This document shows, in pieces, positions 5,687 through 30,104 of a stretch of DNA of 53,768 nucleotides (position 1 is the first letter of the stretch; each line of letters begins with the position of its first letter). The notes beneath the pieces are model-generated. The model saw only the letters and a program-made list of their open reading frames with translations. It had not been told where the DNA came from and did no database searches. The DNA lies in the NCBI GenBank assembly GCA_002369055.1, contig DFEL01000028.1, positions 1-53,768 on the forward strand, given 5' to 3'. The position numbers and the translations under genes were made by a program. This DNA is from Cyanobacteria bacterium UBA3803. GTDB taxonomy: Bacteria; Cyanobacteriota; Vampirovibrionia; Gastranaerophilales; Gastranaerophilaceae.

Positions 5687-8600
5687 TTAAATTTTTTCTT
5701 CAATAGATTTTATTTCAACATCAATTTTGCTTGGTATAAACTTCTTAACTGCATGCTCTAAATCATTTGTTGCACTTACCCAAAATGCAGGTGCAGACGC
5801 TATTTTTACCTCGCTGTCATCTTCTTTTACTTTTATTACAACAGGATCTGAACCCGGATATTTTGCTAAAATATCTTTCATTGCTACCAGTTCTTCGTAA
5901 GGAACTTCATCATTTATGGATATCATAAATATATTTGCATTATCAACCGGTTTTACATCATCTATTATAATATTCGGTTCATCTTCGTTTCTGTAACTTA
6001 CTTTTCCTGTTATTATAATTTTATTATCAGGCTGCATAAAATCATTAAATTCGCCTAATTTCTGATGAAAACAAAGAGCTTCAATCTTGCCCGATAAATC
6101 TTCCAGTGTAATTGTCTTTAAAAATTTTGAAGGATCTTTTTTGTACGGAATTTGTCTTGCAGAAGTAACAAGTCCGCACAATGTAACAACTTTTTCATCA
6201 GGAAGCTCTTTTACTTCTGAAATTTTATGTGTTTCAAGAAAATCCATTTTATCCATAATTGATGATAGCGGATGAGATGACACATAAAATCCCAAAAATT
6301 CTTTTTCAAAAGATTGTAATTCTTTATTTGAAAATTCTTCATCAGAACCTGCCAATTGAAATTGCGTCCCTGCAAAATCTTCATTATCCTCTAAACCTGC
6401 AAAAAGGCTTGTTTGCCCTAATTCTTTTGCTTTAGCCTCTTTATTGGCTGTATTTATAATATATTCAAGATTTTCTAAAAGTTGTTTTCTACTTTTTTCC
6501 AAATTTGAAAATGCACCTGATTTAATTAACCCTTCCATTACCCTTTTATTTGTTGCTTTTGGATCAATTCTTTTGCAAAAATCGTAGATAGATTTAAACT
6601 CGCCATTTTTTTCTCGTTCTTCAATAATCATTTTAACAACAACTTCGCCCACTTGTTTTACAGACGCAAGTCCAAAACGAATATTATCGCCGTCAGGAGC
6701 AAATTCTGCGTACGACTTATTTATGTCAGGCGGAAGAACTTTTATACCTTTTTTATTACATTCTTCAATGTATAATTGTGTTTTTTCCTGATCATTTGAA
6801 ACACTGGAAAGCAAGCAAGCCATATATTCAACAGGATAATGACACTTCAGGTATGCTGTTTGATAAGCAACAAACGCATAAGCCGCAGAGTGACTTCGGT
6901 TAAAACAGTATGATGCAAATTTTTCAATTTGTTCAAATAATGTTGTTGCATCTTGAGCAGACATACCGTGACGGGCAGAACCTTCAATAAATTTGCCCTT
7001 TTGCTTTTGCATTTCTTCAACTTTTTTCTTACCCATCATACGTCTTACCATATCGGCTTGACCAAGAGAATAATCCGCAAGGGTTTGGAAAACTTGCATA
7101 ATTTGTTCTTGATATACAATAGTTCCGTAAGTATCTTTCAATACCGGTTCTAATGACGGATGTGCGTATGTAATTGCTTTTCTTCCGTGTTTTCTGTCAA
7201 CAAATTCGTCAACCATACCGGAATCTAACGGACCCGGACGGAATAATGCAACCAACGCACCCAAATCTTCAAACACGTCAGGTTTTAATCTTTTTACAAG
7301 ATTTTTCATACCTGATGATTCCAACTGAAATACACCGTCTGTATCACCACGCATAAGCATTTCATAAGTTGGCTTATCATCAAGCGGTATGTGGTTAATA
7401 TCAACATCAATACCCTGACGTTTTTTTATTGCATCAAGAGTTTTATAAATTGTTGTAAGGTTTCTCAAACCCAAAAAGTCCATTTTTAAAAGGCTTAAAA
7501 CTTCTGTAACATCATGAGGCGGATAACCTGTTTGAACAATACCATCTTTTGATGGTTGAACAGGTATAATTTGATCTAAAGGTTTTGGTGCAATAATTAC
7601 ACCCGCTGCGTGAGTACCGGTATTATTCTTAATACCCTCAATACCCATTGCCAAATCTATCCATTTTTTCACACCAACTTTTTTACCCTCAATCGGGTCA
7701 ATTACAATTTGAGTATCTTCATCATACATTTGACGAAGTTCCATACCGTCTTGTAAAGCATCCTTTATATGCGTTTTTGGTTCTGACGGAATTAAACTTG
7801 CTATTCTGTTACTTTCTGAAAACGGTATTTTCAAAATTCTTGCAACACCTTTTACTGCCGCTTTTGCAGCATAAGTACCAAATGTAATAATTTGGCAAAC
7901 TTTATCTTCACCGTATTTTTGAGTTACATAATCTATAACCTCTCCACGACGCTCGATACAAAAGTCAATATCAATATCGGGCATTGTGAAACGCTCAGGA
8001 TTTAAAAATCTTTCAAACAAAAGTTTGTGTTCAATTGGGTCTAAGTCAGTAATTTCTAGTGCATACGCAACAAGCGAACCTGCAGCAGAACCACGACCCG
8101 GACCTACAGGAATACCATGAGTTTTTGCATAGTGAATAAAGTCCCAAGTAATTAAGAAATAAGCGGCAAATCCCATTTGCTCAATTACACCTAATTCATA
8201 CTCCGCACGTTCTCTTAATTCCTTTGTAATTTCACCATAGCGTTTCTTTACACCTTCCATTACAAGATAATTTAAATAACTTTCTGTTGTATGATTTTTA
8301 GGTACTTCATAATGCGGAAGCGGGGATTTTCCGAGTTCGAGTGTCAAATGGCACTTGTCAGCAATTTTTACTGTATTTGCAATACATCTGTTAAATAAAT
8401 CTTCTTCCATCCAAGAAAAAGACTGTCTTAATTGTTCTGCATTTTTTACATAAAATTCATTACCCTCAAAATGAAAACGGTTAGGATCATCTTTTTCGGA
8501 ATTAGTATTCATACACAACAACGTGTCATGCATATCTGCATCTTCTTTACGTAAATAGTGAGAATCGTTTGTTATAACCATTTCAATATCAAGTTCTTTT

Positions 8601-9178
8601 GCCAAAGCAATAAGTTCAGGATTAGTACGTTTTTGATCTTCTAAACCATGGTCTTGAAGTTCAATATAATAATCTTCACCGAACAATTCCTTATATTGTT
8701 TTGCAACTTCTCTTGCTTTTTCAGGCTCACGATGAAGAAGATTTTGTAAAATTTCTCCTCCAAGGCATGCCGATAAACAGATTAAACCTTTGTGGTGTTC
8801 TTTAATCAATTCCCAGTTAATACGAGGGTGTACATAACGACCTTTACACCAAGCCTCTGATGTCAATTTAATTAAATTTTTATAACCGTCCTTATCCTTT
8901 GCAAGCAAAATCAAGTGATAACAAGGATTATTCATTTTATCACGCTCTGTAATATCGCCATTATGAACGTAAAACTCACAGCCCAGAATTGGTTTCAAGC
9001 CTGCTTCTTTTGCCGTTGTATAAAGTTCCATATCACCGTACATTACACCATGGTCGGTAATTGCAACTGCAGGAAATTCTTCTTCTTTCGCAAAATTACA
9101 TAAATCATCTATTCTTATCGCACCATCAAGTAACGAATATTCTGTGTGCAAGTGTAATGGAACATACGGTCTTCTCAT
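5687..9178 (-). CDS. dnaE: DNA polymerase III alpha subunit
   Basis: 1163 aa. PHP domain start (FVPLHLHTEYSLLDGA), the MPDIDIDF catalytic motif and an OB-fold tail. Confidence 0.95.
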   Translation of the reverse strand: MRRPYVPLHLHTEYSLLDGAIRIDDLCNFAKEEEFPAVAITDHGVMYGDMELYTTAKEAGLKPILGCEFYVHNGDITERDKMNNPCYHLILLAKDKDGYKNLIKLTSEAWCKGRYVHPRINWELIKEHHKGLICLSACLGGEILQNLLHREPEKAREVAKQYKELFGEDYYIELQDHGLEDQKRTNPELIALAKELDIEMVITNDSHYLRKEDADMHDTLLCMNTNSEKDDPNRFHFEGNEFYVKNAEQLRQSFSWMEEDLFNRCIANTVKIADKCHLTLELGKSPLPHYEVPKNHTTESYLNYLVMEGVKKRYGEITKELRERAEYELGVIEQMGFAAYFLITWDFIHYAKTHGIPVGPGRGSAAGSLVAYALEITDLDPIEHKLLFERFLNPERFTMPDIDIDFCIERRGEVIDYVTQKYGEDKVCQIITFGTYAAKAAVKGVARILKIPFSESNRIASLIPSEPKTHIKDALQDGMELRQMYDEDTQIVIDPIEGKKVGVKKWIDLAMGIEGIKNNTGTHAAGVIIAPKPLDQIIPVQPSKDGIVQTGYPPHDVTEVLSLLKMDFLGLRNLTTIYKTLDAIKKRQGIDVDINHIPLDDKPTYEMLMRGDTDGVFQLESSGMKNLVKRLKPDVFEDLGALVALFRPGPLDSGMVDEFVDRKHGRKAITYAHPSLEPVLKDTYGTIVYQEQIMQVFQTLADYSLGQADMVRRMMGKKKVEEMQKQKGKFIEGSARHGMSAQDATTLFEQIEKFASYCFNRSHSAAYAFVAYQTAYLKCHYPVEYMACLLSSVSNDQEKTQLYIEECNKKGIKVLPPDINKSYAEFAPDGDNIRFGLASVKQVGEVVVKMIIEEREKNGEFKSIYDFCKRIDPKATNKRVMEGLIKSGAFSNLEKSRKQLLENLEYIINTANKEAKAKELGQTSLFAGLEDNEDFAGTQFQLAGSDEEFSNKELQSFEKEFLGFYVSSHPLSSIMDKMDFLETHKISEVKELPDEKVVTLCGLVTSARQIPYKKDPSKFLKTITLEDLSGKIEALCFHQKLGEFNDFMQPDNKIIITGKVSYRNEDEPNIIIDDVKPVDNANIFMISINDEVPYEELVAMKDILAKYPGSDPVVIKVKEDDSEVKIASAPAFWVSATNDLEHAVKKFIPSKIDVEIKSIEEKI

Positions 9179-9258
9179 TCAACTACCCCTTAATTTCTTT
9201 ATAATACAAGTTTATCATGCAAGGGTGACATTTTCTGTCATTATTAAGAATTGTGAGT

Positions 9259-9301
9259 AAAAAAAACTAAAACGACTATCTTTTCAGATAAGCCGTTTTA
9301 G
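9259..9301 (-). terminator. Rho-independent terminator of the oad operon
   Basis: Minus strand: CTAAAACGgcTTATCTgaaaAGATAgtCGTTTTAG followed by T8. Confidence 0.7.
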
Positions 9302-9324
9302 TTTTGATTCTGTATATATGTCAA

Positions 9325-10512
9325 CTAATGGCAAAGTGCAAGCAAGATACCTGCTGCAACAGCAGAACCTATTACACCTGCTACGTTTGGCCCCATTGCG
9401 TGCATTAATAAGAAGTTTTGAGGATTTGCCTCCAAACCTACTTTATTAACAACACGTGCTGCCATTGGCACAGCTGAAACACCTGCAGCACCAATAAGCG
9501 GATTAATTTTTTTCTTAGAAAATACATTCATTAATTTTGCAAATATTACACCTGAAGCAGTAGCAATTGAAAATGCACACAAACCAAGGAACAAAATACC
9601 CAAAGTTTCAAGTGTCAAGAATTTATCTGCTGATAATTTTGAACCAACTGACAAACCTAATAAAATAGTTACAATGTTAATAAATTCATTTTGCAAAGTT
9701 TTAGCAAGTCTATCCGTTACTCCGCACTGCATTACCAAATTACCAAAGGTTAATGCACCCAATAATGGTGTTGCATCCGGTAAGAAAATAATACATAATC
9801 CTAAAACGACAAGAGGGAATATGATTTTTTCACGTTTAGAAACTTCACGTAATTGAACCATTTGAATTTTTCTTTCAGCCTCAGTTGTTAAAGCCTTCAT
9901 AATAGGAGGTTGAATAATAGGCACCAATGCCATATATGAATATGCAGCAACTGCAATTGCACCCAATAAATCAGGAGCCAGTCTTGAAGTTACAAATATT
10001 GAAGTCGGGCCGTCAGCACCGCCAATAATACCAATAGAGGCTGCTTCAGGCAAACCGAAATCAAATCCTGCATATTTTGCCAGCAACAATGCACCCAACA
10101 ACGCACCAAAAATACCAAATTGAGCAGCACCACCTAGAAGAGCCGTTTTTGGGTTAGCAATTAACGGTCCAAAGTCTGTCATTGCACCTACACCCATAAA
10201 TATGAATAATGGAAATAATCCACCGTCAATACCAACATGGTATACAGTGTATAAAAAACCACCTGGTTCTGCTATTCCTGCAACAGGAATATTTGCTAAA
10301 ATACCACCAAAACCGATTGGTAATAACAATAATGGTTCATAGTTCTTTTTAATTGCCAAATATAACAATACAAGACAAACAAAGAACATTATAATTGCAC
10401 CGTACATGTGTAAGAAATTTTCTACACAATTTACACCTGTTAAGGGTTCTTTTACCATATTGGCAATACCTGTGATACTGCCTAAACTTTTAAAAGATTC
10501 TAATAATTGCAT
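9325..10512 (-). CDS. oadB: Na+-translocating oxaloacetate (or related carboxylic-acid) decarboxylase beta subunit
   Basis: 395-aa polytopic membrane protein. OadB/GcdB/MmdB-like sequences (..GGADGPT.IF...[15 protein letters not shown]..) beside the alpha and gamma subunit genes. Confidence 0.88.
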
Positions 10513-25783: not shown

Positions 25784-27222
25784 TGAAAAAAGTACTAATA
25801 ATTGTCTGTATCTTTGTTTTAAACATATTATCGGTGTCAGCAGCGACATTGCCTGAAAATGTTGTTAATTATATAAAACAAGAGTTTCCAAGTGCAGAAA
25901 TCAGATTTGACGGATTGATTACGGTCAATAATACTCTATACCTGCCCTTATTTCCGGCAAAATGCAACAATATTGAAATATTAGAGATAAAAAAAACAGC
26001 ACCCGATAATAAAAAATTAAAAGATTTACCGGATATTGTTGTGTTTAATAATGATTTTGTGTTATTAAGAGTTATTGAGCAGGATAACGGTAAAAGAACC
26101 GTATTATATCAAAATACTCCATTTTTAGAAGTCAAAACCGGATTATTACCTCAAGATATGCTTGTACCAAAAGGCTTAATTATTCCTGCAAACATTAAAA
26201 CAATTATCGGAGGTTTAAGAATTGCAACAGAAGAAGAAAAAGGTTTAAAAATTCACTCGGATTTAGTGGAAGAAAAACCTATAAATGTTACCGTAAAAAA
26301 TGATATAGTTTCTACGGTTAATCAACTAAAAAATAAAGTTTTTTATATTATTACTTGCAAGTCTAAAAATATTCACGTTATGCCTTCGGACAAATCAAAA
26401 CCTGAATATGCATTATCAATGCCTTCCGTGCCGATAGATTTAAAAAGTTATAAAAATTTCTTACTGATAACAGCGTTTGGTTTAAATGAATTAAATGTAA
26501 TTTCTATTGCTGACGAGGCTGTTATTAAAACATTTGAATTTAATACTCAGCCGGAAGAAATTGTAATTGATAAAATTCATGATTTAGCGTATGTTACAAC
26601 TCCTGACGCTTCGGCAATTTATGTGATTGATTTAAAAACAATGACGTTAAAACAAAAGCTAAATGTAAATGGCAGATGTTCAAAATTATATTTAACAAAT
26701 GATGCGGAAATGTTGATTTATGTTGATAAAAACACAAATGATGTTTGGGTTGTAGAACTTTTTGATGAATATCTTATCAAAGAAGTCGGCATTTTCCCTA
26801 ACGTTTCATCAATAGCCTACTCAGAAAATAAAATTTATCTTGCAAGCAGAACTAAGAATAAAATAGCAATTGTTGATTACGTTACATTAACGGAAATAGG
26901 TGAAATAGAAGTATCGGAAAAACCTGCGGATATGCTTTTATATTATGCAAACCTATATATTTTAGGTGCAAATAACAGTGTTTTACAAGTTCTAAACACC
27001 CAAACAGATAAAATAACAACAACGATAAACTTGAATACAGGAGTATTTGCAACAAGTATATATAAATTGGATAATACAAATATAGCAGTAATAACGGGAG
27101 CAAGAGCAGGCAAATATTCCGTATTAAATTTGGATAAAAAACAAGTAATAAAAACACTTCCTATTGATATTCCCGTTAGCAAGATTGTAATTTTAAATAA
27201 GGTTAAAAAGATAAGTAAATGA
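25783..27222 (+). CDS. Secreted beta-propeller-repeat protein (YVTN/YncE-like), function unknown
   Basis: 479 aa. Signal peptide MKKVLIIVCIFVLNILSVSAA. Repeated ..AYVT....S.IYVIDL.T......I.. strands. The start overlaps the dnaJ stop (TAATG). Confidence 0.6.
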   Translation: MKKVLIIVCIFVLNILSVSAATLPENVVNYIKQEFPSAEIRFDGLITVNNTLYLPLFPAKCNNIEILEIKKTAPDNKKLKDLPDIVVFNNDFVLLRVIEQDNGKRTVLYQNTPFLEVKTGLLPQDMLVPKGLIIPANIKTIIGGLRIATEEEKGLKIHSDLVEEKPINVTVKNDIVSTVNQLKNKVFYIITCKSKNIHVMPSDKSKPEYALSMPSVPIDLKSYKNFLLITAFGLNELNVISIADEAVIKTFEFNTQPEEIVIDKIHDLAYVTTPDASAIYVIDLKTMTLKQKLNVNGRCSKLYLTNDAEMLIYVDKNTNDVWVVELFDEYLIKEVGIFPNVSSIAYSENKIYLASRTKNKIAIVDYVTLTEIGEIEVSEKPADMLLYYANLYILGANNSVLQVLNTQTDKITTTINLNTGVFATSIYKLDNTNIAVITGARAGKYSVLNLDKKQVIKTLPIDIPVSKIVILNKVKKISK

Positions 27223-27776
27223 TGGATTCAACAACAGAATTAGTATTAAAAAGATTAGAAGAAACACAACACGATTTTTGGAACATATCAAGAGCAACAG
27301 GCAATTTTTTAAATATGCTCGTAAAAATTGCTAAAGCAAAAAATGTAGTAGAAGTTGGAACATCAAACGGTTATTCCGGAATTTGGCTTGCAAAAGCACT
27401 CAAAGAAACAGGTGGACACCTTACAACCATTGAATATTATGAAAAGAGAATTGTACTTGCTCAAGAAAATTTTAAAACTTGTGGAGTTGCAGATATTATT
27501 GATATTAAACAAGGTTCTGCTATTGAAACATTAGAAGAAATACCTGAAGATGAAGTTATTGATTTTGCGTTTATTGATGCAAATAAGGCTCAATATATAG
27601 ACTATTTTCATATTATTGATAAACACATGAAATCCGGAGCCATAATTACTGCCGATAATATTACTTCTCACGCAGAAAAAGTCAAAACATTTGTTGATGC
27701 AATTCAAGGCAACAAAAATTATCAGGTTGAAATTCTTGACCTTCCTGCCGGACTTCTTGTCGCAAGGAAAATTTAA
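27219..27776 (+). CDS. Class I SAM-dependent O-methyltransferase (family 3, caffeoyl-CoA OMT-like)
   Basis: 185 aa. ..VVEVGTS.GYS..WLA.AL...G.L.TIE... and ..FIDA.K..Y..Y. An ATGA overlap links it to the preceding gene. Confidence 0.8.
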   Translation: MMDSTTELVLKRLEETQHDFWNISRATGNFLNMLVKIAKAKNVVEVGTSNGYSGIWLAKALKETGGHLTTIEYYEKRIVLAQENFKTCGVADIIDIKQGSAIETLEEIPEDEVIDFAFIDANKAQYIDYFHIIDKHMKSGAIITADNITSHAEKVKTFVDAIQGNKNYQVEILDLPAGLLVARKI

Positions 27777-27804
27777 AAACACAATATTTAATCGAAACAA
27801 TGGG

Positions 27805-27832
27805 TTGAAATATATTTAAAACGAGTTATAAT
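27805..27832 (+). promoter_or_regulatory. Promoter of the candidate antisense small RNA
   Basis: TTGAAA (27805-10), 16-nt spacer, TATAAT (27827-32). Confidence 0.5.
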
Positions 27833-27838
27833 ATAAAC

Positions 27839-27937
27839 AGAACAAGTGGCAATCAGCATAAGCTGAAATTTTACATCACTTTTCGTTTTAGTTTATAAAA
27901 CTAGCACTAGGACGGCAATCGCAAGTGCTAGTTTTTG
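27839..27937 (+). ncRNA. Candidate ~100-nt small RNA (putative type I antitoxin)
   Basis: Runs from the promoter above to the hairpin CTAGCACT-N15-AGTGCTAG plus T5 (27901-27936). It has no ATG. Its 3' ~45 nt are antisense to the 3' end of the peptide ORF on the other strand. It carries ACAUCAC (27873-79), complementary to that ORF's SD region. Confidence 0.4.
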
Positions 27938-27994
27938 CATTTTAAATAATATTGAAATTATAAAAAATAAAATTAGCAATATTGATTTCGCCAT
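27893..27994 (-). CDS. Candidate type I toxin: 33-aa hydrophobic peptide MAKSILLILFFIISILFKMQKLALAIAVLVLVL
   Basis: Absent from the ORF track because it is under 60 aa. SD GAGGTG lies 6 nt before ATG 27994. A possible promoter is TTGACA (28084-79), 15 nt, TATAGA. There are two hydrophobic segments, and the ORF runs through the shared terminator hairpin. Confidence 0.4.
   Translation of the reverse strand: MAKSILLILFFIISILFKMQKLALAIAVLVLVL
27901..27931. terminator. Bidirectional hairpin shared by the convergent peptide mRNA and small RNA
   Basis: 8-bp stem CTAGCACT/AGTGCTAG. T5 follows on the plus strand and TTTTAT on the minus strand. Confidence 0.55.
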
Positions 27995-28151
27995 AAGCAT
28001 CACCTCTTTCCTGACGTAAGAACCGTCAATCAATAAGGTTTAGTGATGTCCACTTGCTCTATATATAATTTTCATTTTTGTCAAATAATTATAAATCTAT
28101 CTTTTACTTATATCAATACATTGAACAGTTGAATGACAAAAAACACAATAT

Positions 28152-28436
28152 TTAATTTTTATCCCCAAAAAGTTTATCTGCGAAATATACAACTAATGCA
28201 GTGTATGGTACTAAAAGTGTTATACCTATTACAATGTTTTTTTCGCAAACCATTAAAACACCTGCGAAAGCTCCTATTATAAAAGCTATAAATAAAATCG
28301 GATAAATTATTCCTTTTTTACCGTATCTGTCTTTGCTTACCATACACCATACAAAAAGTGCCACCGCAAGAAACGCTATACCCAGTGCCAATTCTGTTTT
28401 ATCCATTATTTCAATAATAAAATCAGATTTATTCAT
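28152..28436 (-). CDS. Small membrane protein (3 predicted TM helices), paralog of the upstream gene
   Basis: 94 aa, hydrophobic, with a 1-nt gap to the preceding ORF. Confidence 0.6.
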   Translation of the reverse strand: MNKSDFIIEIMDKTELALGIAFLAVALFVWCMVSKDRYGKKGIIYPILFIAFIIGAFAGVLMVCEKNIVIGITLLVPYTALVVYFADKLFGDKN

Positions 28437-28437
28437 A

Positions 28438-28725
28438 CTACAAAATACCTTTTAAAAATGTTTTTATAACATAATAGAAAGTTATACAGACTAAAAATTC
28501 TGCTAATGCCTGCACTAAAAAACTTTGTCCCTGAGTTAAATCATAAACTAAAAATCCAAACGCTATAAGCCCTGCAAGCATTACAAGTGTTATGAAAAAA
28601 CCCTTTGCTCCAAATTTTTCAATACCGGATGCAAACAAAAACCATATAAAAATAACAAGAATTAATCCGTCCAAGATAAGTTCAATATTATCAAGAATGA
28701 CTCCAATTTGGTCAAACGTACCCAT
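28438..28725 (-). CDS. Small membrane protein (3 predicted TM helices)
   Basis: 95 aa with the same layout as 28152..28436 (..EL.L......W...... K/R-F/Y-G-x-K-G ...). Starts 2 nt after the der stop. Confidence 0.6.
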   Translation of the reverse strand: MGTFDQIGVILDNIELILDGLILVIFIWFLFASGIEKFGAKGFFITLVMLAGLIAFGFLVYDLTQGQSFLVQALAEFLVCITFYYVIKTFLKGIL

Positions 28726-28727
28726 TT

Positions 28728-30059
28728 CTACCTCTTTTTATCAGAGCGTTCACGAACTGAAATTCTAATCGGTGTTCCGAAGAAGCCGAAGGCTTCACGA
28801 AGTTTATTTTCAATATATCTTTTATAATGGTCTTTCATTAAATCGGCATTGTTTGCAAAAAGCACAAACGTTGGTGGTTTTACATTAACTTGTGTTGAAT
28901 ATAAAAGTTTTAAGCGTTTATTTTTAACACTTTGAGGCGGATTCATTAAATAAGCGTCATTTACAACTTTATTTAACAAACCTGTTGAAATACGCTTTGT
29001 GCATTGCTCATAAACTTCCATTGATTTTTCATAAATCTGATTTAATCTTTGTTTGGTAACTGCACTTATGTAAATCTTTGGGGCATAACTCAAAAACGGA
29101 ATTTCATTTACAAGTTTTTTTTCAAATTGACTGGTTGTGTTTGCTTGTTTATTTTCAATTAAATCCCATTTATTAATAGCAATAATCAAACCTTTTCCTG
29201 CTTCAGTAATAATTGAAGATATCTTCTTATCTTGGTCTGAAATCCCTTCTGTTGCATCAATAACAAGTATTGCAATATCACATTCTTTTATTGAATTTAT
29301 GGCTCTATCTACGGCAAATTTTTCAACACCATAGTCAACTTTAGCTTTTTTTCTTATACCTGCGGTGTCAATAATTGTAAAATCTTGTTCTTTGTAAGTT
29401 AATTTACTGTCAATACTATCTCTTGTAGTTCCTGAAACATCAGAAACAATTACTCTTTCTTTACCTAAAAGAGCATTAACAATTGAAGACTTGCCCGCAT
29501 TTGGTCTGCCAACAATTGCAAGCTTTATATCAGTTTCTTCTTCAATTTCATCATCTGCTTCAAAATCTTCTGTTAAAATTTCCAATAAATCGCCTACACC
29601 ACCTGAACCGTGAAGTGCTGAAATACCAATAGGTTCGCCTAAGGCAAGCGAATAAAATTCACTTGTGTATAATGCTTGAGCAGGACTATCAACTTTGTTT
29701 ACCGCAAGAAAAACAGGCTTTTTACTTTGGCGTAAAATATTTGCAATATCTTCATCAACAGGTGTAACACCGTCTTTTCCGTCAACAATAAAAATTATTT
29801 TTTCTGCTTCTTCACAAGCAATTTTTGCTTGGTCATATATAGAAACCATAATTTCATCTTCATCACCCGGAACAATTCCGCCTGTATCAATTACCGTAAA
29901 CCATTTATTTTGCCATTCAACATCAAAATAAATTCTGTCACGTGTAACACCGGGCATATCATCAACAATTGATTGACGTTTACCTACAAGACGATTTACA
30001 AATGTAGATTTACCAACATTTGGACGTCCAACTATTGCAACTATCGGTTTTCTTTTCAT
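28728..30059 (-). CDS. der: Ribosome-associated GTPase Der (EngA)
   Basis: 443 aa. Two tandem GTPase domains (GRPNVGKST and GRPNAGKSS P-loops) plus a KH-like C-terminus. Confidence 0.93.
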   Translation of the reverse strand: MKRKPIVAIVGRPNVGKSTFVNRLVGKRQSIVDDMPGVTRDRIYFDVEWQNKWFTVIDTGGIVPGDEDEIMVSIYDQAKIACEEAEKIIFIVDGKDGVTPVDEDIANILRQSKKPVFLAVNKVDSPAQALYTSEFYSLALGEPIGISALHGSGGVGDLLEILTEDFEADDEIEEETDIKLAIVGRPNAGKSSIVNALLGKERVIVSDVSGTTRDSIDSKLTYKEQDFTIIDTAGIRKKAKVDYGVEKFAVDRAINSIKECDIAILVIDATEGISDQDKKISSIITEAGKGLIIAINKWDLIENKQANTTSQFEKKLVNEIPFLSYAPKIYISAVTKQRLNQIYEKSMEVYEQCTKRISTGLLNKVVNDAYLMNPPQSVKNKRLKLLYSTQVNVKPPTFVLFANNADLMKDHYKRYIENKLREAFGFFGTPIRISVRERSDKKR

Positions 30060-30104
30060 AAGTTAATTTTAACATGAATAAAATTAATTATAAAATAAAC
30101 ATTA

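Follow-up and report, generated by a model that had tools for sequence, protein, structure and literature searches.

What is encoded in the unannotated stretch of about 315 bp that lies between two convergent promoters on contig DFEL01000028.1 of Cyanobacteria bacterium UBA3803, a member of the Gastranaerophilales? The window, by which we mean the whole 53,768 nt of this contig that were analysed, contains in this interval a minus-strand open reading frame (ORF) of 33 codons for a hydrophobic peptide and, convergent with it on the plus strand, a predicted antisense RNA of about 100 nt. The first-pass annotation proposed a type I toxin-antitoxin (TA)-like locus. The core of that proposal, namely two convergent small genes, a shared terminator and occlusion of the Shine-Dalgarno (SD) sequence in cis, survives the comparative tests, while several of its specifics do not. 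The locus is best explained as a functional module of the type I TA kind, made up of a peptide and an antisense RNA, a reading to which we assign a probability of roughly 0.7 and in which we infer, rather than demonstrate, toxicity of the peptide.

Anatomy of the convergent unit

The unit was compared with the orthologous locus (L024) in a Candidatus Gastranaerophilales metagenome-assembled genome (MAG) from reindeer, which is 95% identical and has the same flanking genes as the window. That the window's host belongs to the Gastranaerophilaceae/Gastranaerophilales is also indicated by the sources named for O-methyltransferase homologues of 72-86% identity. The elements of the unit are as follows:

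27994 to 27893 (ATG to TAA), minus strand: peptide ORF of 33 codons, MAKSILLILFFIISILFKMQKLALAIAVLVLVL, from the ORF list and from conservation of the frame
28006-28001, minus strand: SD GAGGTG, 6 nt ahead of the ATG, within the extended SD GAGGUGAU
27995-28062, minus strand: core of the toxin messenger RNA (mRNA) leader, 1 difference in 68 nt versus the ortholog
28063-28087, minus strand: 5' extension of the leader, weakly conserved (68% identical to the ortholog)
28116-28088, minus strand: conserved toxin promoter TTGATA-17-TATAAT, score 11/12, 29/29 nt identical in the ortholog, predicted transcription start site near 28081
28084-28079 and 28063-28058, minus strand: TTGACA-15-TATAGA, one base off the coordinates implied earlier, with TATAGA reaching into the leader core
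27805-27832, plus strand: small RNA (sRNA) promoter TTGAAA-16-TATAAT, consensus score 11/12, both hexamers present in all family copies
27839-27943, plus strand: predicted antitoxin sRNA of about 100 nt, ATG-free, with predicted start site and 3' end
27853-27866, plus strand: sRNA stem-loop SL1, UCAGC-AUAA-GCUGA, its stem invariant in all copies
27873-27880, plus strand: sRNA motif ACAUCACU, resembling the 16S anti-SD and complementary to the toxin SD region AGGUGAUG
27897-27935, both strands: shared bidirectional intrinsic-terminator hairpin, inside codons 20-32 of the peptide ORF

The ORF, the SD, both promoters, the shared hairpin and the ACAUCAC/GUGAUG motifs of the first-pass annotation all lie where it had placed them or within one base, and the hydrophobic 33-amino acid (aa) frame at 27994-27893, with GAGGTG 6 nt upstream, can be read directly in the sequence. 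The peptide is wholly hydrophobic apart from a central K-M-Q/E-K, and AlphaFold2 predicts one continuous helix over residues 2-32 (predicted local distance difference test score 93.5). Profiles from Pfam, NCBIfam, PADLOC and PHROGs give no match to the peptide, even at E <= 10, beyond noise such as EVI2A (E = 4) and TatA (E = 0.21). A phmmer search against 1.84e9 protein representatives returned 0 matches, the peptide is absent from a 5.8-billion-cluster protein collection, and a 46-aa version of the ORF extended to a TTG codon likewise has no protein-database matches. Gene callers miss the ORF on every contig with an identical locus. The absence of the peptide from 15 billion predicted proteins means that standard annotation misses the family entirely.

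A TTGACA-15-TATAGA promoter had been proposed for the peptide gene. This sequence sits in the least conserved part of the unit and its TTGACA is missing in the ortholog and in every other copy, while a conserved promoter occurs 30 nt upstream. TTGATA-17/18-TAnAAT is found in every full copy, including the diverged L131, at a constant distance of about 26 nt upstream of AGAGCAAGUGG; the predicted leader is therefore about 87 nt long rather than about 60. The leader core comprises the SD (GAGGUG, 28006-28001), a central hairpin (28029-28011) and the 5' strand GGACAUCACU (28051-28042). In the predicted fold, GGACAUCACU and a CCUU pair with AAGAGGUGAUGCU and occlude the SD, and the toxin mRNA folds better than its dinucleotide shuffles (z -4.1). 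The consensus fold across copies similarly pairs GGACAUCACU and CCUU with AAG(A/G)GGUGAUGCU around a UUGACG/CGUCAR hairpin. It comprises 23 pairs, and three changes on one side only remain compatible with it: A-U becomes G-U in L131, and at two positions U-G alternates with U-A. The earlier suggestion that the SD is sequestered by the 5' end of its own mRNA is compatible with the single-sequence and consensus predictions, in which the helix is nearly invariant. An upstream ORF, ATGAAAATTATATATAGAGCAAGTGGACATCACTAA (MKIIYRASGHH*, 28085-28053, minus strand), is specific to the window, where it lies in the leader extension and overlaps the anti-SD strand. It is shortened to MKII* in the ortholog and missing in the remaining copies, and is therefore probably not functional.

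The sRNA gene consists of a 5' domain that hardly varies (27839-27880, 1 difference in 42 nt versus the ortholog), a variable spacer (27881-27892, 5 differences in 12 nt) and the terminator hairpin followed by U5. The plus-strand promoter and the ATG-free stretch of about 100 nt behind it stand as first described, with hexamers kept across the family. The predicted sRNA also folds better than dinucleotide shuffles (z -3.1). The SL1 loop varies among copies (AUAA, AUAC, GUAC or AAAU). CAUCAC of the ACAUCACU motif is invariant in all copies, the preceding base being mostly A and G in L052 and L065, and the motif is predicted to be single-stranded in the consensus fold of nine copies.

The two genes meet in the terminator, whose 12-bp stem is perfect (27897-27908/27924-27935) and is followed by T5 on the plus strand. 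The hairpin sets a perfect 3' overlap of about 45 nt between the two predicted RNAs. Both the T5 hairpin inside the 3' end of the peptide ORF and this complementarity had been noted from the window alone, and comparison adds compensatory evidence for them: three pairs of the stem are altered on both sides with pairing kept (for example CAC/GTG to CGT/ACG). The same nucleotides are thereby constrained as codons and as hairpin. A single terminator substitution in L111/L023 gives a U-G pair on the sRNA strand and a C-A mismatch on the toxin strand.

Conservation, selection and transcription

The unit belongs to a family of about 10 distinct copies, 81-95% identical, in at least six genomic contexts, found through exact-pattern scans and a search with a neighbouring gene. 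Besides the window and its ortholog, these are:

L023, L026, L028: three copies on three contigs of one rumen MAG, RUG12125
L005: a single copy on an IMG/VR viral contig
L052, L053, L065, L077, L085, L104, L111: additional metagenome copies
L131/L132: a diverged copy (83.7%), located via the neighbouring gene

Apart from the ortholog, the cassette is the sole sequence common to the window and the other loci, and homology between copies stops just beyond the two -35 boxes. A covariance model of the sRNA scores 118-128 bits on every copy, and across 97 loci it detects no copies beyond those known. In metagenome contigs from bovine rumen, the depth over 27802-28062 is 5-15x that of the flanks, and many 80-95%-identical variants diverge from the window at these two positions. 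The conservation in related genomes that had been proposed as a check is thus found for the whole promoter-to-promoter unit, at 81-95% identity, in about 10 copies and in unrelated contexts. The distribution is patchy, and close relatives have an empty site where the flanking genes abut.

The window contains no second copy according to blastn, tblastn and the sRNA covariance model. The best non-self covariance match, at 9201-9313 (23.5 bits), was rejected as a paralogue of the cassette and is an ordinary intergenic hairpin terminator, flanked by minus-strand genes for a DnaE-like polymerase (5687-9178) and a 395-aa membrane protein (9325-10512). A BLAST search with the cassette found no match among 72,556 plasmids or 50,697 phage genomes. 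A scan of viral contigs with exact 16-18-mers recovered L005 as its one true copy, the rest being chance matches; L006, for example, is such a match inside a coding gene. At the Rfam gathering threshold a tRNA is the only match in the window and no antitoxin or sRNA family is detected, while a permissive Rfam scan of 27600-28300 yields only sub-threshold noise of 10-20 bits.

The comparison of copies supports a coding function for the ORF. A frame of 33-34 codons is open in 9 of the 10 distinct copies, with conservative or synonymous changes. Eight peptide variants occur, including that of L131, and the exchanges among them are I/L/M/V/F, S/A, Q/E, V/T, A/T at residue 2 and L/Y at the C-terminus, with K18N, M19K and L22P in addition in the leaderless L111/L023 peptide. 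Variable sites are distributed 12/5/10 over the three codon positions; the second position is least variable and its T is kept. Synonymous changes are present (codon 7, for example, occurs as CTA, CTT or CTG, three forms). Pairwise ratios of nonsynonymous to synonymous polymorphism (pN/pS) range from 0.12 to 0.92 among copies, at a synonymous divergence of 13-27%. The ATG is unchanged in all full copies, as is the SD region save for one A/G position, the spacing is fixed, and no in-frame stops occur in the ORF despite its AT-rich sequence.

The exception in frame, L077, equals L104 with a 13-nt deletion. These two loci (L077 2224-2474, L104 860-1123) are near-identical (97.5% over 1.4 kb), and the deletion frameshifts the peptide ORF to 7 codons and leaves the sRNA gene intact; it represents either a natural inactivation of the toxin or an assembly variant. 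In the L023/L111 copy the leader and SD are lost and the sRNA is kept.

Selection on the unit is evident in the comparison with the ortholog. The ORF is identical at 102 of 102 nt, and the sRNA 5' domain, ORF and leader core together differ at 2 of 212 nt, against 203 differences in 1868 nt of the flanking protein-coding genes (Fisher p = 6.6e-8). The sRNA 5' domain and the leader core are better conserved than the third codon positions of the ORF. The unit is also transcribed. Two metatranscriptomes from bovine rumen contain RNA contigs that match 27848-28031 and 27851-28042 at 100% identity, along with diverged variants, but no contigs at >=90% identity over the rest of the 4.3-kb neighbourhood (25800-30100). 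Since the RNA contigs are confined to the element, its transcription clearly exceeds that of its neighbours. A run from another study (X25) also contains a variant contig across the element, and a sheep-gut run (X24) contains one contig, of depth 2, identical to 27982-28132.

Proposed mechanism and known type I systems

By analogy with the behaviour of par/Fst, SprA1 and the Bacillus subtilis prophage systems, the following mechanism is proposed, which goes beyond the anatomy, conservation, selection, transcription and distribution that the data show. The strong promoter at 28116-28088 would produce a minus-strand toxin mRNA, in which the 5' strand of the leader, resembling the 3' end of 16S rRNA (GGACAUCACU with CCUU), would fold round a small hairpin onto the extended SD AAGAGGUGAUGCU. 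With the SD buried in this fold, nascent toxin mRNA would be poorly translated. The last 12 codons of the ORF would double as the intrinsic terminator. The convergent promoter at 27805-27832 would produce an RNA of about 100 nt ending in an exactly complementary terminator hairpin, so that a kissing contact between the loops could bring the two RNAs into a duplex of about 45 bp that includes the 3' end of the ORF with the stop codon. Cleavage or decay, or else a translationally inert complex, would be the outcome. A second contact is conceivable, as the 5' domain of the sRNA repeats the 5' motif of the mRNA (CAAGUGG...ACAUCACU) and may provide an anti-SD strand in trans. Upon loss of the cassette or prophage, or a drop in sRNA synthesis, the toxin would be translated and the cell penalised, the hydrophobic alpha-helical peptide presumably inserting into the cytoplasmic membrane and arresting or killing the cell.

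In architecture the cassette comes nearest to par (Fst/RNA II, Enterococcus faecalis pAD1) and par-like loci, including sprA1/SprA1AS of Staphylococcus aureus, which have convergent promoters and a shared bidirectional terminator, as here. In par-like loci the bidirectional terminator is accompanied by 5' sequestration of the SD and by DRa/DRb repeats transcribed in opposite directions (PMC7472228). Complementary stem-loops that are able to start RNA-RNA contact are common to these loci and the cassette, as are a hydrophobic toxin (here a candidate) of about 33 aa and members on mobile elements, phages and core genomes (PMC7472228); a 5' structure over the toxin SD is predicted for the cassette. 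Type I pairs that overlap at their 3' ends are known on prophages and other mobile elements (PMC7472228; PMC8167048), and the SprA1AS antitoxin acts through its 5' domain (PMC8167048). The cassette differs from par in that its ORF runs through the terminator, so that the whole 3' overlap is coding, and in its host, which belongs to the Cyanobacteriota/Melainabacteria rather than to the Firmicutes or Enterobacteria. Par-like loci have a second complementarity at the translation initiation region, whose counterpart here spans only 6-8 nt and is statistically unsupported. Nor does the candidate toxin carry the Fst/Ldr signature of a transmembrane helix, conserved Trp, highly charged C-terminus and PXXXG: all 8 peptide variants have no Trp, no charged C-terminus (they end in LVL, LVY or LVLF) and no PXXXG. 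Given this and its failure against every profile, the candidate toxin is not a member of that superfamily.

The B. subtilis pairs txpA/RatA, bsrG/SR4, bsrE/SR5 and yonT/SR6 are, like the cassette, convergent, perfectly complementary at their 3' ends and located on prophages or prophage-like elements. They share no sequence similarity with the cassette, whose candidate toxin has no charged C-terminal tail and whose overlap, about 45 nt long, does not extend beyond the terminator hairpin; the 3' overlaps of the B. subtilis pairs are longer. In these systems the duplex leads to cleavage by RNase III, and SR4 also alters the structure around the SD (PMC8167048). The type I modules of Clostridioides difficile that lie in prophages or adjacent to clustered regularly interspaced short palindromic repeats (CRISPR) are also similar, with small hydrophobic toxins and convergent antisense RNAs in multiple copies in a gut anaerobe (PMC8167048). 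Both they and the cassette occur in prophages and repeat-rich regions. They are unrelated in sequence, however, and no CRISPR association was seen for the cassette. The repeats neighbouring L028 and L085 belong to a different, intergenic repeat family.

The observations that weigh against a type I module concern the pairing of the two RNAs, the evidence for transcription and the peptide itself. For the non-overlapping parts of the RNAs, RNAduplex energies lie within the shuffled distribution, with 0.23-0.75 of the shuffles as good. As these energies are no better than those of dinucleotide shuffles, the trans pairing outside the 3' overlap that had been put forward is not above chance, and anti-SD pairing in trans is not claimed here as shown. 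The ACAUCAC motifs (28049-28043, minus strand; 27873-27879, plus strand), GUGAUG (28003-27998) and CAUAAGC (27857-27863) on which it was based are all present. The pairing of CAUAAGC with the start codon is specific to the window, however, as most copies have CAUACGC and others CGUACGC or CAAAUGC, opposite an mRNA GCUUAUG that never changes. Both partners of the UAUUGAUU/AAUCAAUA pairing suggested within the mRNA likewise exist, and their pairing is weakened in L026, L052 and L131 without compensation. The CATCAC direct repeat on the plus strand (27874-27879 and 27998-28003) is invariant in all copies, and the complementarity that it provides spans only 6-8 nt. The shared ACAUCAC 5' motif may nevertheless be an attractive lead for a contact with the SD in trans. 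To judge from the sequence, the robust element is the perfect 3' overlap of about 45 nt imposed by the shared hairpin.

The leader helix shows no double covariation across copies, since it is almost invariant. The metatranscriptome contigs span both the sRNA-only and the mRNA-only parts but are unstranded, and so do not demonstrate two separate convergent transcripts or their ends. The contig ends are uninformative on transcript ends because the same assembly-graph branch points (27852, for example) occur in DNA runs. The U-tract on the toxin strand is short and the stop codon lies at its edge, so that a fraction of the toxin transcripts might have no stop codon. The peptide is atypical for type I toxins, with no charged tail, two lysines in the middle of the helix and short hydrophobic runs of 13 and 12 residues. 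The pN/pS ratio reaches 0.9 in some pairs, a value calculated from very few sites, and codons 20-32 are constrained by RNA structure too.

A bolder form of the type I reading can be formulated, in which the cassette represents a new TA family that, as an autonomous unit from promoter to promoter, is mobile between rumen bacteria of the Gastranaerophilales type and the temperate phages of these bacteria, with an antitoxin that is an inverted partial duplicate of the toxin leader, neutralisation by strand swap, and the first type I system described in the Cyanobacteriota/Melainabacteria. Taken as a whole this is tentative and somewhat doubtful. The two RNAs both start with AGA(G/A)CA(A/G)GUGG followed by ACAUCACU (ACAUCGCU in the L131 mRNA), on account of which the antitoxin may be an inverted partial duplicate of the leader; in the sRNA a stem-loop is inserted between these two blocks. 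The sRNA covariance model also matches the toxin strand weakly (35.7 bits in L028). In a strand swap, the 16S-like anti-SD strand that acts in cis within the mRNA would be supplied in trans by the sRNA, with a kiss between the two terminators, wholly inside coding sequence, as the anchor.

In its layout the cassette is a variant of par/Fst and of the prophage systems of B. subtilis; the candidate toxin family is new and no concept is overturned. Type I TA systems are difficult to find by homology. To our knowledge, they have been characterised almost only in Firmicutes and Proteobacteria, and our literature search turned up neither a paper that connects type I TA systems to Melainabacteria nor one that describes such a system in Gastranaerophilales or rumen bacteria. 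The present candidate, defined purely from sequence, comes from an uncultured non-photosynthetic sister lineage of the cyanobacteria, and illustrates that metagenomic data suffice to validate loci of this kind when no host is in culture, through conservation, compensatory changes, selection, empty sites, prophages and metatranscriptomes. If the peptide is toxic, the family would add a new membrane-active peptide, a compact and portable regulatory cassette, and a tractable example in which coding sequence also serves as a bidirectional terminator.

Alternative explanations and genomic settings

In the viral contig L005 and the prophage of L026, the cassette is located between baseplate/tail genes (phrog_52, 9992, 43, 6, 788) and a CI-like S24 repressor gene (phrog_4, PF00717), with the toxin gene co-directional with the late genes and the sRNA gene co-directional with, and just downstream of, the repressor gene. 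A position between late genes and repressor is typical of prophage accessory genes, or morons, and the peptide could be a non-toxic small membrane protein under cis-antisense control, with the antisense RNA only tuning its expression and no addiction or killing; a membrane modulator, a superinfection-exclusion factor or a holin-related factor would be candidates for such a product. The coding and RNA evidence fits this explanation equally, and the peptide has no profile match and shows neither the charged tail nor the motifs known from characterised Fst/Ldr toxins (PMC7472228). SD occlusion combined with a strong convergent antisense promoter and a shared terminator would, however, constitute unusually heavy repression, characteristic of toxic products, and the multi-copy, patchy and horizontally dispersed distribution is typical of TA modules. 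The frameshift in L077 and the loss of leader and SD in L023/L111, both with the sRNA kept, are moreover the patterns expected on inactivation of a toxin. A harmless accessory protein is accordingly considered unlikely, though it is the strongest of the competing explanations.

In the arrangement seen in L005, where about 30 nt separate the end of the repressor gene from the -35 box of the sRNA gene downstream of it, read-through from the repressor gene would add antitoxin RNA and read-through from the late operon would add toxin mRNA. Both prophage copies (L005 9658-10957, L026 243-1442) have a conserved 65-aa ORF ending in ...KDERRYEYSPEYARQN directly upstream of the toxin promoter. Other copies, at chromosomal sites, adjoin glycosyltransferase, XRE-family regulator or beta-lactamase-like genes.

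The unit could alternatively be a purely non-coding element, either two convergent regulatory RNAs or one RNA with a bidirectional terminator, in which the frame is incidental and stays open only because the sequence is rich in AT and U and is constrained by the hairpin. Non-coding parts more conserved than the ORF, a third of which is terminator hairpin, pN/pS near 1 in some pairs, and an ORF that is never called and occurs in no protein database would all be compatible with this. Yet the extended SD GAGGUGAU stands 6 nt ahead of an invariant ATG, 9 of 10 copies preserve the frame and its length in spite of the synonymous divergence of 13-27% and without in-frame stops, second-position T is preserved with all replacements conservative, and a helix that occludes the SD would be purposeless without translation. 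A non-coding element is thus distinctly improbable.

At the window locus, the immediate surroundings of the cassette and the corresponding sites in relatives are as follows:

27775-27792, plus strand: left copy of an 18-nt perfect direct repeat, AAAAACACAATATTTAAT, overlapping the O-methyltransferase stop codon
28139-28156, plus strand: right copy of the repeat, overlapping the stop codon of the convergent 94-aa membrane-protein gene
L131/L132: diverged cassette directly after the O-methyltransferase gene, then der
L121/L122 and L129/L130: O-methyltransferase and 94/95-aa genes overlapping by 4 nt, an empty site with no cassette trace and no CACAATATT repeat core
L123, L133, L134: O-methyltransferase gene leading almost straight into der
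L125-L128: SNF2-helicase gene after the O-methyltransferase gene, cassette not found

The perfect 18-nt repeat and an imperfect 24-nt inverted similarity near both ends (27832-27855 versus 28044-28067) could be taken as transposition or recombination signals of a small non-autonomous mobile element, either an att-flanked cassette or like a miniature inverted-repeat transposable element (MITE), with promoters and ORF secondary, and empty sites and the 152-nt repeat of another family around the L085 module accord with this; it is nonetheless the least probable of the explanations, since the other copies lack the 18-nt repeat or any common terminal repeat, homology stops at the two -35 boxes, the inverted similarity lies within the transcribed 5' ends rather than at the termini, the diverged L131 copy at the same position also fits vertical descent followed by loss, and mobility would not exclude a TA function. 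The L131 cassette has diverged to about the same degree as the host genes (84% versus 85-89%), so that an ancient cassette lost several times is no less possible than one gained several times.

The two copies of the 18-nt repeat are its only matches in the window, against a chance expectation of 0.17. A simple target-site duplication of the site seen in the empty relatives was rejected as its origin, as those lack the repeat core; it may instead represent an att-like core, a duplicated older 12-nt spacer or a product of recombination. Repeats of another kind occur at three loci, L028 (1870-2700), L085 (1225-2135) and L053 (443-464), where the cassette lies within a repeat-rich intergenic stretch. 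The motif AAATCCGCTGTCTTGGATTATTGGCGGTTCA, which is absent from the window, is found three times in L028, twice in L085 and once in L053, with one occurrence per locus abutting the -35 side of the sRNA gene. In L085 a 152-nt direct repeat brackets the cassette, and L028 contains three copies of a unit of about 55 nt that ends in the hairpin TCTCCCCC/GGGGGAGA. The AAATCCGCTGTCTTGGATTATTGGCGGTTCA repeats may constitute a family resembling repetitive extragenic palindromes or MITEs.

On the right side of the window cassette, tandem minus-strand genes at 28152-28436 and 28438-28725 code for predicted membrane proteins of 94 and 95 aa that belong to no Pfam family. These two genes evolve quickly: their DNA is 83% and 73% identical to that of the ortholog, compared with 94-95% for the adjacent methyltransferase gene and der. 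Their presence or absence in close relatives is independent of that of the cassette, so that a small variable region extends from the methyltransferase gene to der.

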